64,000 bases of DNA from the IMG/VR virus record IMGVR_UViG_3300034093_003283; one strand, 5' to 3'. Source of the stretch: a virus. This document shows positions 5,966 to 11,755 of this stretch, in pieces. Within the stretch, counting starts at the first letter, position 1, and every line of letters starts with the position of its first letter. A model generated the notes under the pieces. The model saw only the letters and a program-made list of their open reading frames with translations, was not told where the DNA came from and did no database searches. The position numbers and the translations under genes are program-made.

Positions 5966-5992
5966 AAGGGGTCTTGACAGACCCCTTTTTTT
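5966..5992 (+). terminator. intrinsic terminator
   Basis: AAGGGGTCT-TGAC-AGACCCCTT followed by Ts. Confidence 0.8.
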
Positions 5993-6011
5993 GTTGTATA
6001 ATGGTGTCATT

Positions 6012-6206
6012 ATGAAAACTGTTAAAACTTCCATTCGCAAATTACGCAACCGCTTGAACCCAAGTGAAATCTATTTTACTCAATCTGATTGGGATCCCAA
6101 AGAGATTGATGGTGTACTATTTCTGCCTGTGGCGGAACAGATACCTATTCCTAGAGGCCGCATGTTAAAATGGATGCGTAAAGATTCTTTAGAATATGTT
6201 AAATAA
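6012..6206 (+). CDS. hypothetical protein
   Basis: ORF downstream of a TTGACA/TATAAT pair. Confidence 0.55.
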   Translation: MKTVKTSIRKLRNRLNPSEIYFTQSDWDPKEIDGVLFLPVAEQIPIPRGRMLKWMRKDSLEYVK

Positions 6207-6207
6207 C

Positions 6208-6282
6208 GCCCATATAGCTTAATGGTAAAGCAGGGAACTCATAATTCCTTGAGTGGGGGTTCAATTCCCTCTGTGGGCACCA
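6208..6282 (+). tRNA. tRNA with CAU anticodon (Met or Ile2)
   Basis: Cloverleaf, loop CTCATAA, encoded CCA. Confidence 0.9.
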
Positions 6283-7391: not shown

Positions 7392-7419
7392 TTGCCAAGG
7401 CTCAAAGTTTACTATATAA
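7392..7419 (+). promoter_or_regulatory. promoter for the leader and tRNA operon
   Basis: TTGCCA-N16-TATAAT. Confidence 0.7.
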
Positions 7420-7452
7420 TACAAACATATTTAATTTTTTAGAAAGAAAAAA

Positions 7453-7572
7453 GTGTCTCTCATATCCCATAAGCCCTTTACGTTACAACTAGAGTATCGC
7501 ACAATGAATTGCGCCGATAGCTCATGGGCGATTACAACCGGGTTTTGTGTAGATGAGGGATGGGACGGATAA
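7453..7572 (+). CDS. putative attenuator leader peptide, 39 aa, containing all 20 amino acids
   Basis: GTG...TAA, MSLISHKPFTLQLEYRTMNCADSSWAITTGFCVDEGWDG; AGAAAG upstream; overlaps the antiterminator strand. Confidence 0.7.
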   Translation: MSLISHKPFTLQLEYRTMNCADSSWAITTGFCVDEGWDG

Positions 7573-7599
7573 AAAAGTTCTAAAAAAGACTCCAAACAC

Positions 7600-7636
7600 A
7601 AGACCCTAGACCTAAAAAATCTAGGGTTTTTTGTTT
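7600..7636 (+). terminator. attenuator terminator upstream of the tRNA array
   Basis: AAGACCCTAGA / TCTAGGGTTTT stem with a T-rich tail; its 5' arm can instead pair with 7540-7550. Confidence 0.8.
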
Positions 7637-7708
7637 GTTGTTTCAATACAACACAGTGGTTGCCAGAATCTTTGGTTCTGATACAATACACACTTGTTCT
7701 TTAAAAAT
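7636..7708 (+). promoter_or_regulatory. TGTTG-N8-CAACA site, promoter and boxA-like element
   Basis: Palindrome 7636-7653; TTGCCA-N16-TACAAT 7660-7687; TGTTCTTTAAAAA. Confidence 0.7.
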
Positions 7709-7722
7709 TTGTTGTAGTTTAT

Positions 7723-7796
7723 TCCCGAATGGTGTAGTGGCAGCACAGCAGACTTTGACTCTGTTAGTATAAGTTCGATTCTTATTTCGGGTGCCA
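7723..7796 (+). tRNA. tRNA-Gln(TTG)
   Basis: Cloverleaf, CCA. Confidence 0.9.
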
Positions 7797-7888
7797 TATT
7801 CAAACACATTATAGTGACGCATGAGCAGGTCACCAACTTCCGCTGGTTACGACAATCGTAAGTGAGTGAAGATAGTGTGTTTCAATAT
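7797..7888 (+). ncRNA. structured spacer RNA closed by an AAACACATT/AGTGTGTTT stem
   Basis: Terminal inverted repeat and internal hairpins. Confidence 0.5.
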
Positions 7889-7981
7889 GGAAGATAATGC
7901 AGGTGGGATGGTCCGCCGACTAGCCTTGAAAACTAGGTTCTCTCAAAAAGGGATGGGGTTCGACTCCTCTGTCTTCCGCCA
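7889..7981 (+). tRNA. tRNA-Ser(TGA)
   Basis: Long variable arm, G73, CCA. Confidence 0.9.
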
Positions 7982-7989
7982 AATTTTAA

Positions 7990-8063
7990 CTGGGTATATG
8001 ATAGTGGCAGTCGCCGAGGTTTGGAACCTTGTAGTGCAAGTTCGATTCTTGCTACCCAGACCA
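7990..8063 (+). tRNA. tRNA-Pro(TGG), atypical with A37
   Basis: Loop TTTGGAA, CCA. Confidence 0.8.
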
Positions 8064-8068
8064 AAAAC

Positions 8069-8158
8069 GGAGAGTGGGCAGGATGGTAATGCAGCGGATT
8101 GCTAATCCGTAGGCTCATGAAAGTGGGCCACAGGGTTCGACTCCCTGACTCTCCACCA
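8069..8158 (+). tRNA. tRNA-Ser(GCT)
   Basis: Long variable arm, CCA. Confidence 0.9.
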
Positions 8159-8160
8159 AT

Positions 8161-8252
8161 GCCAGCGAGACTTGGTAGTCAGAGAGGTCTTATACACCTT
8201 TTAGCGCCAGATTAGCGTTCTTGATAGGGTTCGATTCCCTACGCTGGTACCA
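8161..8252 (+). tRNA. atypical tRNA with UAU anticodon and long variable arm
   Basis: GCCAGCG/CGCTGGT acceptor, loop CTTATAC, TTCGATT T-loop, ACCA. Confidence 0.75.
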
Positions 8253-8260
8253 GATTTTAT

Positions 8261-8336
8261 GTTGGTGTGACCCGAATGGCTAGGGAGCAGATTGCAAATC
8301 TGTTATATGCAGGTTCAAATCCTGTCACCAACTCCA
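8261..8336 (+). tRNA. tRNA-Cys(GCA)
   Basis: Cloverleaf, U73, CCA. Confidence 0.9.
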
Positions 8337-8340
8337 AACA

Positions 8341-8446
8341 TGTTGTAGAAATACAACAGTGCTGGTTGACAAAAGATGTGGTTGTGTTATACTTCATACA
8401 TGAATTGAGAAATCAATCAAACGTTCTTTAAAAATTTGTTGTAGTT
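8341..8446 (+). promoter_or_regulatory. TGTTG-N8-CAACA site, promoter and boxA-like element
   Basis: Palindrome 8341-8358; TTGACA-N17-TATACT; CGTTCTTTAAAAATTTGTTGTAGTT. Confidence 0.75.
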
Positions 8447-8450
8447 AATT

Positions 8451-8525
8451 GCACCTATCGTCTATCGGTTAGGACGCTGCCCTTTCAAGGCGGAAAGAGG
8501 AGTTCGATTCTCCTTAGGTGTACCA
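8451..8525 (+). tRNA. tRNA-Glu(TTC)
   Basis: Cloverleaf, CCA. Confidence 0.92.
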
Positions 8526-8648
8526 TTTGTTTTGCTGATGTAAGCCATGAGGTAAACGTCAACCTTGAGTAACTCTGTATAGAAACGGTAATTGCTGCAG
8601 CTAATTCCGTTGAGCATAGCAAATAGTGCGTCAGCAAAACAAATGGTA
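8526..8648 (+). ncRNA. structured RNA closed by a ~20-bp stem
   Basis: TACCATTTGTTTTGCTGATG (from 8521) pairs with CGTCAGCAAAACAAATGGTA. Confidence 0.55.
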
Positions 8649-8654
8649 GTTTAT

Positions 8655-8729
8655 GGAGGTATAACTTAACGGCGAAAGTAGCTGGCTTTTAACCAGTAAA
8701 TCAGAGTTCGATTCTCTGTGCCTCTACCA
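8655..8729 (+). tRNA. tRNA-Lys(TTT)
   Basis: Cloverleaf, CCA. Confidence 0.92.
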
Positions 8730-8807
8730 TATAAAAACACATTTCAATAGTTTCGACTGTGATGGATAGTTTCTGTTTAGTACAGTATCCGAAGTGTGTT
8801 TCTATAT
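8730..8807 (+). ncRNA. structured spacer RNA closed by an AAACACATTT/GAAGTGTGTTT stem
   Basis: Same terminal stem as 7797-7888 with a different interior. Confidence 0.5.
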
Positions 8808-8900
8808 GGAGCAATTGATGCTATGGCGTGTGCATCGGCGGACTGTAAATCCGTCCCCTCCGGGTAAACAATCTTGGTTCGACTCCAAGTTGCTCCACCA
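8808..8900 (+). tRNA. tRNA-Tyr(GTA)
   Basis: Long variable arm, CCA. Confidence 0.9.
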
Positions 8901-8903
8901 AAT

Positions 8904-9085
8904 CCCGGTACTACTTCCGTTAAAGTAGCGTTTGATTAGCGATAGAGATCCGGTGGCAGAAGACCGTTAGCGGAGTAATCCTGAATCTGATAGGCAGAAT
9001 CTCACTGCACACAGACTCCGAATAAATGAGATGGACAGAGTAACTGCTCAATTAAGGGCTGGCGTGGAACCCAGTAGCTTATACT
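8904..9085 (+). ncRNA. unknown structured RNA
   Basis: Several hairpins plus crossing pairs CGGAGT/ACTCCG and ATCTCA/TGAGAT. Confidence 0.5.
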
Positions 9086-9090
9086 AATTT

Positions 9091-9165
9091 GGTCTCAAAG
9101 TGTTCATGGACGCACGTATGCCTGTCACGCATAAAGAAGGGGATCGTTACCCCTTGGGACCGCCA
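9091..9165 (+). tRNA. tRNA-Asp(GTC)
   Basis: Cloverleaf, atypical T-loop ATCGTTA. Confidence 0.88.
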
Positions 9166-9173
9166 AGTTTTAT

Positions 9174-9249
9174 TCCGCAGTAGCTCAGTCGGTAGAGTAG
9201 ATGACTGTTAATCATTTGGTCGGTGGTTCGAGCCCACCCTGTGGAGCCA
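9174..9249 (+). tRNA. tRNA-Asn(GTT)
   Basis: Cloverleaf, CCA. Confidence 0.93.
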
Positions 9250-9257
9250 ATTTTTTC

Positions 9258-9334
9258 CCGTGTGTAGCTCAGCTAGGTAGAGCTCTTGGTTTGGGACCAA
9301 GTGGTCGCATGTTCGAATCGTGTCACACGGACCA
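9258..9334 (+). tRNA. tRNA-Pro(TGG)
   Basis: Cloverleaf, G37, CCA. Confidence 0.92.
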
Positions 9335-9387
9335 ATTTCGCCTTTGTTGACGGCGTATAATAGGATAAGTTGTCAACAACAAATTTT

Positions 9388-9462
9388 GGGCTGGTAGTGA
9401 TAATGGGAGCACAGGGGCTTTGCAAGCCTTTAGTCGGGGTTCGATCCCCCGCCGGTCCACCA
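9388..9462 (+). tRNA. tRNA-Ala(TGC)
   Basis: G3:U70, CCA. Confidence 0.92.
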
Positions 9463-9467
9463 AATTC

Positions 9468-9542
9468 GGTTCAGTAGCACAGTGGTAGTGCAACTCCTTC
9501 ATACGGAGTAGGTCGTTGGCTCGTATCCAACCTGAACCACCA
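9468..9542 (+). tRNA. tRNA-Met(CAT)
   Basis: Loop TTCATAC, atypical T-loop CTCGTAT, CCA. Confidence 0.85.
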
Positions 9543-9546
9543 GTAT

Positions 9547-9622
9547 GGGTCTTTAACTCAGTGAACAGAGTACTTGGCTACGAACCAAGAAGTCGTAGGT
9601 TTGAATCCTACAAGACCCTCCA
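9547..9622 (+). tRNA. tRNA-Arg(ACG)
   Basis: Cloverleaf, CCA. Confidence 0.88.
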
Positions 9623-9623
9623 A

Positions 9624-9843
9624 GCCGTTCCGCTTTGTTAGCGGATACTGTGACCCACAGGATAGAAGTGAGGTGACTCTCACGGGTGGTAGTCTTTAAA
9701 CCGAAAGGCCGCTGGCAGTGCGATAACGGTCCTGGTCGGGAAGCGGGTGGAGGGTGTGTGTTACAAGGCGTTGAACCAAACGGGGAGCCAAGTAACAACG
9801 GTGCGAGCTGACACACTAAATTACCGCCGCAGGACGCAGAGCA
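9624..9843 (+). ncRNA. ~220-nt GC-rich, pseudoknotted RNA of unknown family
   Basis: Several hairpins, CC-GAAA-GG tetraloop, long-range GGTGGTAGT/ATTACCGCC pairing. Confidence 0.65.
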
Positions 9844-9848
9844 TTTAT

Positions 9849-9922
9849 ACCCCGTTAGCTCAAAGGTAGAGCACCCGGCTGATAACCGGGAGACAGAGGA
9901 TCGTTACCTCTACAGGGTACCA
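9849..9922 (+). tRNA. tRNA-Ile(GAT)
   Basis: Cloverleaf, atypical T-loop ATCGTTA, CCA. Confidence 0.85.
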
Positions 9923-9928
9923 AATTTT

Positions 9929-10002
9929 TTCTCGCTGGTGTAATGGCAGCATAGCGGTCTCCAAAACCGTTGGTTGGGGTTCGAGTCCCTAGCGGGAAGC
10001 CA
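9929..10002 (+). tRNA. tRNA-Trp(CCA)
   Basis: Loop CTCCAAA, G73, CCA. Confidence 0.9.
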
Positions 10003-10023
10003 ATTTTTATAAAGGTGATTGAT

Positions 10024-10512
10024 ATGAAAAAGTTCGACATAGAAGAAGTCAAAACATTCCTTGCAAAACAAGGACAAGATACCAAAGTGTACCTTGGTGC
10101 TGACTCTGAAAGAATTAGAGTTAACGGTGTTTGGTATGCTGATTATGCTTTGGCTGTCGTAGTTCATATTGATGGCCGCCACGGTTGTAAGATATTTGGT
10201 TATGTAGATAGAGAAATGGATTATGACCATAAGAAAAGTAAACCTGCTATGCGTCTGATGACAGAAGTATACAAGGTTTCAGAATTGTTCCAAAACTTGG
10301 CTGACGTATTAGAAGATTTTCATGTTGAAGTTCATTTGGACTTGAACAAATCTGATGAATTCGGAAGTTCATGTGTTGTGCAACAAGCAATAGGTTATAT
10401 CAAAGGTACATGTAACATGACACCGATGGTTAAACCAGATGCACCTGCTGCTAGTTTCTGTGCCGATAGATTGAAAAGAATCTTGGCCGAACAAGAAGCA
10501 GTGCATGTCTAA
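10024..10512 (+). CDS. RNase H-fold protein (YkuK/DUF458-like)
   Basis: VYLGADS, RLMTEV, EVHLD, VKPDAPAASFCAD. Confidence 0.75.
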   Translation: MKKFDIEEVKTFLAKQGQDTKVYLGADSERIRVNGVWYADYALAVVVHIDGRHGCKIFGYVDREMDYDHKKSKPAMRLMTEVYKVSELFQNLADVLEDFHVEVHLDLNKSDEFGSSCVVQQAIGYIKGTCNMTPMVKPDAPAASFCADRLKRILAEQEAVHV

Positions 10513-10543
10513 CAGACCTCCAAAGTAATTAAGTTTACTTTGG

Positions 10544-10619
10544 GCAGTGCTTAGTGTAGTGGTCTGCACCTCTCGCTGTGACCGAGATAGTATGAGTTCG
10601 ATCCTCATAGTGCTGCCCA
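10544..10619 (+). tRNA. tRNA-His(GTG)
   Basis: G-1:C73, loop CTGTGAC. Confidence 0.9.
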
Positions 10620-10629
10620 AAGTAAATTT

Positions 10630-10704
10630 GCCTTGTTAACTCAGCGGTAGAGTGTCTCCCTTACAAGGAGAAGGTCGGCGGTTCGATCCCGTCACAAGGT
10701 ACCA
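10630..10704 (+). tRNA. tRNA-Val(TAC)
   Basis: Cloverleaf, CCA. Confidence 0.93.
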
Positions 10705-10708
10705 ACAT

Positions 10709-10784
10709 GCTGCTTTAGCTGATGTGGTCATAGCGCTGGTTTGAAGAACCAGTGAAAGAGGTTCGATCCCTCTAGGCAGCACCA
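10709..10784 (+). tRNA. tRNA-Phe(GAA)
   Basis: Cloverleaf, CCA. Confidence 0.9.
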
Positions 10785-10792
10785 ATTATTAT

Positions 10793-10869
10793 ACCCAAGT
10801 GACGAAATTGGCAAACGTGTCTCTCTCAAAAGGAGAATTTTGTGGGTTCGAATCCCATCTTGGGTACCA
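10793..10869 (+). tRNA. tRNA-Leu(CAA) with short variable loop
   Basis: Loop CTCAAAA, variable region ATTTT. Confidence 0.88.
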
Positions 10870-10870
10870 T

Positions 10871-10944
10871 GCTCTCATAGTATAATGGCATTACACATCC
10901 TTGGTAAGGATGAAAACCAAGTTCAATCCTTGGTGGGAGCACCA
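10871..10944 (+). tRNA. tRNA-Thr(GGT)
   Basis: Cloverleaf, CCA. Confidence 0.9.
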
Positions 10945-11106
10945 ATATTTTTTATTTCATCCAGTACAAAAAGCTGTTGCCTTGTTTCAAAGGATGGTGT
11001 AAAATCATTGCTGTTGGTGAATGATTTTGTTTCTTGATATGATTCCAATTTATTGGCCATATCGTATAAATCTTTAACATAATTTTTTTCCATAGAAGTA
11101 TTTATT

Positions 11107-11183
11107 GCCCCGGTGACGGAATTGGTATACGTGTTGGTCTTAGAAGCCAAATTTTGAGAGTTCGAGTCTCTCCTGGGGCACCA
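11107..11183 (+). tRNA. tRNA-Leu(TAG) with short variable loop
   Basis: Loop CTTAGAA, variable region ATTTT. Confidence 0.88.
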
Positions 11184-11190
11184 AGTTTTT

Positions 11191-11260
11191 AGTTACAGTC
11201 AGTACTGTGGGAAGTACAGGTGGACAACACCAGGACAAGGTTCGAATCCAAACTGTAATT
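11191..11260 (+). ncRNA. tRNA-like RNA without CCA
   Basis: AGTTACAGT/ACTGTAATT closing stem, two hairpins and a GGTTCGAATCC T-loop. Confidence 0.55.
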
Positions 11261-11263
11261 TTT

Positions 11264-11338
11264 CTGGCGTTAGTATAATGGACAATACAGTAGGCTTCTA
11301 CCCTTCTAATGGGAGTTCGATTCTCTCACGCCGGACCA
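11264..11338 (+). tRNA. tRNA-Arg(TCT)
   Basis: Loop CTTCTAC, CCA. Confidence 0.85.
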
Positions 11339-11342
11339 GATT

Positions 11343-11425
11343 GCGAGTATGGTGGAATAGGTAGACACAAGAGACTTAAAATCTCTCGCTTCGGCGTACC
11401 GGTTCGATTCCGGTTACTCGTACCA
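11343..11425 (+). tRNA. tRNA-Leu(TAA)
   Basis: Long variable arm, CCA. Confidence 0.92.
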
Positions 11426-11443
11426 AGTATACCAAAATATTGG

Positions 11444-11472
11444 TTGACAGTTGAATAGAAAGCATATATAAT
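11444..11472 (+). promoter_or_regulatory. sigma70 promoter before tRNA-Gly(GCC)
   Basis: TTGACA-N17-TATAAT. Confidence 0.75.
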
Positions 11473-11481
11473 AACTCTATT

Positions 11482-11556
11482 GCGGGTATGGTGCTAGTGG
11501 TAACACAAGACCTTGCCAAGGTTTAGTTGTGAGTTCGATTCTCACTACCCGCTCCA
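11482..11556 (+). tRNA. tRNA-Gly(GCC)
   Basis: Cloverleaf, U73, CCA. Confidence 0.92.
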
Positions 11557-11561
11557 GATTC

Positions 11562-11635
11562 GCCCTATTAGTATAATGGTATTACACCTGTTTTGTAATC
11601 AGGTTACGGCAGTTCGATTCTGTCATGGGGCACCA
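11562..11635 (+). tRNA. tRNA-Thr(TGT)
   Basis: Cloverleaf, CCA. Confidence 0.9.
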
Positions 11636-11643
11636 AATAAGTA

Positions 11644-11672
11644 TTGACTACAACAGATTTTTAGTGTATAAT
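11644..11672 (+). promoter_or_regulatory. sigma70 promoter before tRNA-Gly(TCC)
   Basis: TTGACT-N17-TATAAT. Confidence 0.7.
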
Positions 11673-11681
11673 AGTTTATGT

Positions 11682-11755
11682 GCGGGATTAGTTTAATGGT
11701 AAAACAGCAGATTTCCAATCTTCGGTCATCAGTTCGATTCTGATATCCCGCTCCA
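11682..11755 (+). tRNA. tRNA-Gly(TCC)
   Basis: Cloverleaf, U73, CCA. Confidence 0.9.

Follow-up and report, generated by a model that had tools for sequence, protein, structure and literature searches.

A conserved leader with near-complete amino-acid coverage as a candidate transcription attenuator of tRNA arrays in uncultured T4-like phages

A short conserved leader in front of a phage tRNA array seems to constitute a ribosome-dependent transcription attenuator that would report the decoding of many amino acids, a reading to which we assign a probability of about 0.55. As part of the same reading, the leader peptide appears to be selected for including nearly all amino acids, each with about one codon. 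This interpretation is drawn from the anatomy of the locus, its conservation, the apparent selection for coverage of the amino acids, indications that the ORF is translated, and alternative RNA pairings, all of them read from sequence. The window, i.e., the whole 64-kb stretch of DNA analyzed here, is part of a 111-kb record of an uncultured virus, and this virus is T4-like, with a family-B DNA polymerase of about 50% identity to the enzymes of cyanomyoviruses. DNA searches of GenBank phages in near and distant modes did not find a close relative. Distant homologs of the SprT-like neighbour of the leader occur in Stenotrophomonas phage DLP_6 and Caulobacter phage Cr30, neither of which has an adjacent leader or tRNA array, and a cultured model was not identified. 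The promoter, ORF, pairing, terminator, and downstream promoters that a preliminary description had proposed for this DNA are all present where it had placed them, and the features of the locus are given here with their coordinates in the window.

7392-7420, + strand: promoter P1, TTGCCA-17-TATAAT, with 11 of 12 consensus matches, driving the leader
7441-7446, + strand: Shine-Dalgarno-like purine-rich AGAAAG, 6 nt 5' of the GTG start
7453-7572, + strand: leader ORF with GTG start, 39 codons plus stop, all 20 amino acids
7468-7476, + strand: candidate segment 1 (CATAAGCCC), which might pair weakly with segment 2 and does so in the full-length fold
7492-7523, + strand: mid-ORF hairpin H1, base TATCGC / GCGATA-like, nucleotides near-invariant
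7540-7550, + strand: segment 2, the 5' strand of the antiterminator (GGGTTTTGTGT), codons 30-33
7570-7572, + strand: stop codon of the leader, in the window 19 nt beyond the core of segment 2
7596-7606, + strand: segment 3, the strand common to both helices (ACACAAGACCC), with segment 2 or the terminator 3' arm as partner
7600-7636, + strand: intrinsic terminator, stem 7600-7610 / 7620-7630, 9-nt loop, T-run
7660-7687, + strand: second promoter P2, 3' of the terminator, TTGCCA-16-TACAAT, the -10 hexamer being preceded by TG
7695-7718, + strand: boxA-like element, 3' of P2 and 5' of the first tRNA
7723-7796, + strand: tRNA-Gln(UUG), first of a 27-tRNA array (7723-11755)

The order of promoter, short ORF, intrinsic terminator, and tRNA array is kept across homologous leaders. 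Among 80 loci from viral metagenome contigs, anchored on the upstream SprT-like gene, the intergenic DNA is homologous in many, and 43 homologous leaders were obtained from them. A second, independent sample, anchored on the terminator sequence alone, added 36 new distinct leaders, and the total is 78 distinct leader peptides of 30-44 aa on contigs of related uncultured T4-like phages. In every true homolog a short ORF with a common core precedes the first tRNA, and the position of P1 is kept, its score being 10-12 of 12 in most homologs. The arrays behind these leaders comprise 20-32 tRNAs and cover nearly all amino acids. Pattern matches in bacterial genomes (120) include none with a leader upstream; they are therefore regarded as chance terminators and are uninformative on the host. 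The Rfam scan of the locus returned only Thr_leader at 23.5 bits (gathering score 55, E = 0.5), a chance-level match limited to the terminator, and no match to a T-box. Searches of four diverse leaders against Pfam and PHROG profiles identified no family at E ≤ 1.

Comparative evidence points to a leader ORF that is really translated. The examination of regions upstream of related tRNA arrays, which the preliminary description had suggested, finds the leader frame open in 78/78 cases, whereas frame +1 is stop-free in only 6/43 and frame +2 in 0/43. In a frame-blind nucleotide alignment, 32/43 gap events (74%) within the ORF are multiples of 3, compared with 17/65 after the stop codon. Start codons come in two arrangements. 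In 17 leaderless cases an ATG, and never GTG or TTG, lies exactly 6-7 nt after the -10 hexamer, while in 19 leaders a 5' UTR, about 30 nt in length, precedes the ATG or GTG start and carries a purine-rich Shine-Dalgarno site (AGAAAG, AGGA, or GGAG at this position). Leaderless starts are found in about half of the leader homologs, e.g., L006, L015, L016, L024, L030, and L039. A short ORF with start signals directly behind a promoter, as expected for an attenuator, is therefore present.

These data bear on a reading in which the transcript of about 200 nt serves as a small RNA without coding function or as a processing element, similar to the stable RNAs of the T4 tRNA cluster, and the ORF is incidental. 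Nucleotide-invariant blocks (GAGTATCGC, segment 2, and segment 3) would suit such an RNA, the fold of the full transcript is more stable than that of its shuffles (z = -3.7), and a terminated leader RNA would build up anyway. However, one frame is open and the others are closed, indels are mostly in frame inside the ORF, unlike outside of it, and the start codons and Shine-Dalgarno sites follow a coherent logic. As, in addition, amino-acid coverage seems to be selected and no Rfam family was matched beyond the chance-level terminator hit, we consider a purely non-coding function very improbable.

It is the composition of the peptide that distinguishes this leader. All 20 amino acids occur in 46 of the 78 leaders and at least 19 in 67 of them, against baseline frequencies of about 0.001 for 20 and about 0.02 for at least 19 in 36-aa windows of this phage's proteins. 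Column shuffling keeps the composition at each position and breaks compensation within a sequence. Compared with such shuffles, and with the reservation that the kinship of the sequences inflates all shuffle statistics, 36 representatives of less than 70% identity contain a mean of 19.4 amino acids (17.6 ± 0.17 after shuffling; reached by 0/5000), and 12 of 14 representatives of less than 40% identity contain at least 19 (3.2 ± 1.4 expected; 0/20000). His is present in 97% of leaders (56% expected), distributed over 14 alignment columns, and Cys in 92% (32% expected), distributed over 12 columns; in some clades, His and Arg trade places. Ser excepted, the number of copies ranges from 1.1 to 2.4 per amino acid. 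Kinship inflation notwithstanding, selection on the presence of amino acids, not on their position, seems to be the simplest reading of these data.

The sequence of the peptide behaves differently from its composition. Within clades, 91, 93, and 136 changes are counted at codon positions 1, 2, and 3, respectively, and 152 changes are of the nonsynonymous type vs. 56 of the synonymous type. The few invariant residues fall on nucleotide-invariant RNA segments. The ORF thus appears to evolve almost neutrally in sequence while its composition stays constrained, and the leader peptide itself is probably not the functional product. Alternatively, the promoter, the ORF, and a terminator of the usual kind would make up a separate gene for a small protein that acts in trans, e.g., as a fast-evolving anti-defence or regulatory peptide, with the tRNAs being transcribed from P2 or by leakage through the terminator. 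All comparative signs that favour translation of the ORF agree with such a gene as well, and Tyr, Trp, Cys-x-Asp, and a DEGWDG-like C-terminal tail recur across clades. Against it stand the predominance of nonsynonymous changes within clades, the coincidence of conserved residues with nucleotide-invariant pairing segments, the lack of a Pfam or PHROG family, and the invariable location directly 5' of tRNAs. Moreover, the complementarity between the end of the ORF and the terminator arm and the near-complete set of amino acids would be left unexplained. We therefore judge a trans-acting small protein improbable, although somewhat less so than an RNA with an incidental ORF.

Considered alone, the leader in the window is less telling than the family. 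Its count of all 20 amino acids holds with the GTG start read as Met, and in the window alone this property is found in 2/299 mechanical ORFs with a length of 30-45 aa, i.e., it is only mildly unusual. Since it is not significant after multiple testing, significance rests on conservation in homologs. Several statements of the preliminary description on codon choice were confirmed. Codons 2-29 represent 27 distinct codons out of 28, and the synonymous sets that it listed are correct. Such diversity has a chance of about 3e-4 when compared with ORFs drawn from genome codon usage, and the same is obtained with real 28-codon windows. Also, the leader is rich in GC-ending codons that are uncommon elsewhere (GC3 of 0.47 vs. 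0.31 in window genes), and rare codons occur in it, i.e., GGG (0.02), ACG (0.04), CCC (0.06), and AGC (0.06). The view that synonymous codons vary deliberately did not hold up, as isoacceptor coverage in the window is 21 vs. 20.9 by synonymous resampling and the excess in the family is only mild. Across the family, 397 codon pairs for the same residue differ where 335 are expected, and the phage's own anticodons are covered 297 times vs. 268 expected over 14 arrays, with the window being at expectation. Synonymous or isoacceptor coverage was therefore rejected as the main feature, with a weak excess in the family and none in the window.

Most of the coverage is located 5' of the pairing segment, where leaders average 18.3 amino acids in 28 residues. 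Some amino acids are often supplied solely by segment 2, namely Val in 47/76 and Gly in 32/76 leaders. The earlier proposal that Gly codons come too late to be sensed is correct insofar as Gly lies in or after the pairing segment; it was incomplete, since Val is usually located there too, also in the window. When amino acids missing from the leader were compared with tRNAs missing from the array, no clear correspondence was found, few arrays being complete.

With regard to the RNA, segment 2 (7540-7550) and segment 3 (7596-7606) form 11 bp including one G-U, as originally described, and this pairing is the minimum-free-energy structure of a transcript ending before the 3' arm of the terminator. 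In the full transcript, the terminator hairpin (7600-7630) with its T-run wins. The two helices are mutually exclusive, as had been claimed, and some covariation is seen in homologs. The terminator is conserved, many of its stems being compensated, and its covariation is clear, with 91% of cells paired and 42 two-sided changes vs. 12.8 in shuffles; among homologs a tRNA begins 4-118 nt after it, so that an intrinsic terminator is placed as an attenuator requires. The distal segment of the ORF pairs in such a way that the terminator is excluded, and in 40/43 homologs the best partner of the terminator 5' arm within the ORF is this same segment. In a per-sequence duplex analysis, antiterminator energies range from -13 to -23 kcal/mol (z of -2 to -7), and the homolog's own partner pairs at -18.9 kcal/mol, compared with -14.95 ± 0.65 kcal/mol for the partners of other homologs (0/20000 permutations). 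Compensating pairs are exemplified by TTATGT/ACATAA in L012, TTCGTG/CACGAA in L076, and GTGGA/TCCAC in L074. Column-based counts are less pronounced, with 83.7% of antiterminator cells paired vs. 81.1% in shuffles and 8 two-sided changes vs. 4.3 (29/500 shuffles reach 8), partly because clades are out of register. For the same reason, RNAalifold on a whole-leader MAFFT alignment recovered little, i.e., the terminator base alone, and per-sequence duplexes and a trimmed alignment were used instead. Column covariation of the putative antiterminator is modest, and much of the support for this helix consists in conservation.

Two further structures of the leader were considered. A candidate for segment 1 sits consistently at codons 4-9, with energies like those of shuffles (z about 0, mean -0.5), and pairing of segments 1 and 2 is strong only in the clade of L039. 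As pairing energies are no better than those of shuffles, they do not support a segment 1:2 anti-antiterminator as a general feature. If this pairing is absent, the ribosome could stall at any upstream codon with the same effect, as would suit a sensor indifferent to codon position. For the mid-ORF hairpin H1, the stem base is conserved, and inner stems and loops vary between clades; it might serve as a pause or insulator hairpin.

The position of the ribosome was modelled by masking 30 nt of the leader. With the A site at codons 1 to about 25, the probability of the antiterminator is near 1, whereas with the A site at codons 27 to about 36, i.e., over segment 2, it is near 0. In most homologs, the stop codon is situated between -9 and +7 nt from the point where segment 2 ends, with segment 3 following 18-26 nt later. 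For a mask at the stop codon, the probability is near 0 in clades with short ORFs, but segment 2 is re-exposed in the window, L006, and L070. A C-terminal extension reading DEGWDG, DEGWDD, or EEGYDG recurs in distant clades (7550-7569 in the window; L032, L070, and L120) and puts the stop codon 16-19 nt past the pairing segment.

From this arrangement we infer how read-through would depend on ribosome position, and in which direction and to which physiological trigger the element would respond. Transcripts from P1 would be translated at once, with initiation at a Shine-Dalgarno site in the window and, for about half of the related leaders, at a leaderless ATG. A ribosome moving in step with RNA polymerase would reach the end of the ORF and cover or hinder segment 2 (7540-7550), so that segment 3 would pair with the terminator 3' arm and transcription would stop at 7632-7636. 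A delay at any codon up to about 25, or a lack of translation, would leave segment 2 free to pair with newly made segment 3; no terminator would form and polymerase would enter the tRNA genes. As the sensed part contains about 18 amino acids once or twice each, we propose that shortage or destruction of many tRNAs or amino acids raises the amount of phage tRNAs, which in turn would relieve the stall and thereby close a negative feedback loop. In its most specific and still tentative form, the proposal makes the leader a “pangram” sensor of aminoacyl-tRNA supply, in which a stall at nearly any codon would switch on the phage's near-complete set of tRNAs; candidate triggers are a host defence that cleaves tRNAs or the decay of host tRNAs during infection.

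The same attenuator hardware could instead report the global status of translation, e.g., free ribosomes, elongation rate, or the pace of the ribosome relative to RNA polymerase, and an even composition would then average over the tRNA pool with no single amino acid dominating. The very even copy number of amino acids other than Ser is consistent with such a function, and so is the one-codon-per-amino-acid design, for which a weak response to mild starvation for a single amino acid is expected. Also, in view of the lack of strong segment 1:2 pairing, the untranslated state would read through, and leaderless starts, used by half of the family, could couple initiation to the state of the ribosome. 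However, a sensor of general speed needs no set composition, and the rare residues His, Cys, Trp, and Met are kept at shifting positions, by selection as it seems, which suggests that every amino acid counts. Although the global and per-amino-acid readings overlap and are inseparable in silico, we hold the former to be unlikely as the account of this leader.

Several observations sit uneasily with an attenuator that senses many amino acids. Where the stop codon lies 16-19 nt past segment 2, as in the window and some clades, the footprint of a terminating ribosome leaves segment 2 free, and a stall at the Val or Gly codons inside segment 2 would favour termination. Furthermore, a strong P2 and the boxA-like element follow immediately 3' of the terminator in 51 of 71 assessable loci including the window, which makes the gain from P1 read-through uncertain. 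P2 is absent in 19/71 loci, where the distance from the T-run to the first tRNA is 4-75 nt with no promoter between, and the first tRNAs of these loci therefore need read-through. The preliminary description had correctly located promoters at 7660 and 8366 downstream of the terminator and had concluded that the switch would boost the array rather than gate it completely. This conclusion is retained for most relatives, because 51/71 possess P2, but not for the 19/71 lacking it, where gating is expected. For an independent small-protein gene, the presence of P2 behind the terminator in most loci would be convenient, whereas the 19 loci without P2 argue against it.

Other elements of the array deserve mention in their own right. 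The boxA-like element (TGTTCTTTAAAAATT...), at 0-1 mismatches, occurs in the window only at 7695-7718 and 8422-8448, each copy being situated just 3' of a promoter (7660 and 8366, respectively) and 5' of a tRNA, and a regular expression for it matches in nearly all homologous loci with P2. Both Gly tRNAs lie directly behind their own promoters, as had been noted; they are found at 11482 and 11682, about 10 nt 3' of consensus promoters at 11444-11472 and 11644-11672. Positions 7889-7977 encode a tRNA of class II, its anticodon being Ser(UGA), which ARAGORN missed in the window and called in homologous loci, and which gives a tRNA-Sec-like match of 33.7 bits in Rfam. In the middle of the tRNA array, positions 10025-10510 contain an ORF that codes for a protein of about 160 aa. 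Further upstream, in the region 5966-6208, a promoter (5974-6002) has its -35 hexamer in the loop of a terminator hairpin. Transcription is predicted to start only about 3 nt from an ATG at 6012, which is thus nearly leaderless and begins an ORF of 64 aa, the end of which is 1 nt short of a tRNA-Met (6208).

The biological setting is one in which tRNAs are cleaved by the host and decoding is rescued by tRNAs of the phage (PMC10264068; PMC11464382; PMC12409363), and phage tRNA arrays have been linked to escape from tRNA-targeting immunity (PMC10264068; PMC11464382). Judging by their abstracts, PMC10264068, PMC11464382, and PMC12409363 deal with the tRNAs as such and do not describe regulated, stall-induced expression of a tRNA array, nor was it encountered in a full-text literature search, which also found no published description of an all-amino-acid leader before phage tRNAs. 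If the pangram reading is true, this element would be the first known attenuator of tRNA genes and the first with a leader selected for amino-acid completeness, and tRNA arrays would constitute an inducible and self-limiting counter-defence. Phages would then gauge decoding capacity and match their tRNA supply to it, by a new design principle of attenuators in which the whole decoding pool is sensed rather than one metabolite. As the element is compact (about 250 nt) and employs consensus sigma-70 promoters and a standard terminator, it is directly testable in laboratory bacteria, and it might be of use as a reporter for shortage of tRNAs or amino acids. The combination of near-neutral sequence and constrained composition is an unusual signature that could be used to find similar sensors.

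Among known systems, the leaders of amino-acid operons, i.e., trpL, hisL, thrL, ilvL/ivbL, leuL, and pheL, have the same layout of promoter, short ORF, alternative hairpins sharing a strand, and intrinsic terminator, and also share a stop codon placed such that the finishing ribosome hinders the antiterminator strand. They differ in that codons for only one to three amino acids occur in runs and that biosynthetic enzymes are controlled, whereas the phage leader has about one codon each and precedes phage tRNAs. Known attenuators employ dedicated regulatory codons for the relevant amino acid (PMC1183508); here codon runs are lacking and 18-20 amino acids occur about once or twice each. In most clades of the phage leader, segments 1 and 2 show no significant pairing, about half of the leaders are leaderless, and a match in Rfam is lacking, which sets them further apart from amino-acid operon leaders. 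The pheM leader of pheST is an example of leader-peptide attenuation of a gene of the translation apparatus, as proposed for the phage leader; it differs in being specific for Phe codons, controlling a tRNA synthetase, and being cellular, not viral.

In the mef/mel leader, read-through of a terminator is set off by a slowed ribosome on a short ORF (PMC4335068). The trigger of such inhibitor-induced attenuators is not one amino acid, as in the phage leader, but they differ in responding through a drug-bound ribosome, often at specific peptide motifs, and in having resistance genes as output. The bmrB-bmrCD and vmlR leaders are inhibitor-induced ribosome-stalling attenuators of the mef/mel kind, and for this group we know of no selection for a complete set of amino acids. 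With T-boxes, too, it depends on tRNA charging whether the leader terminator of a gene for the translation apparatus is read through, but a T-box binds one uncharged tRNA directly and needs no translation. Compared with attenuators of the trp/his type, the phage leader would thus use the same hardware, with near-complete amino-acid coverage in place of runs of regulatory codons, tRNA genes as targets, and a phage as its setting.
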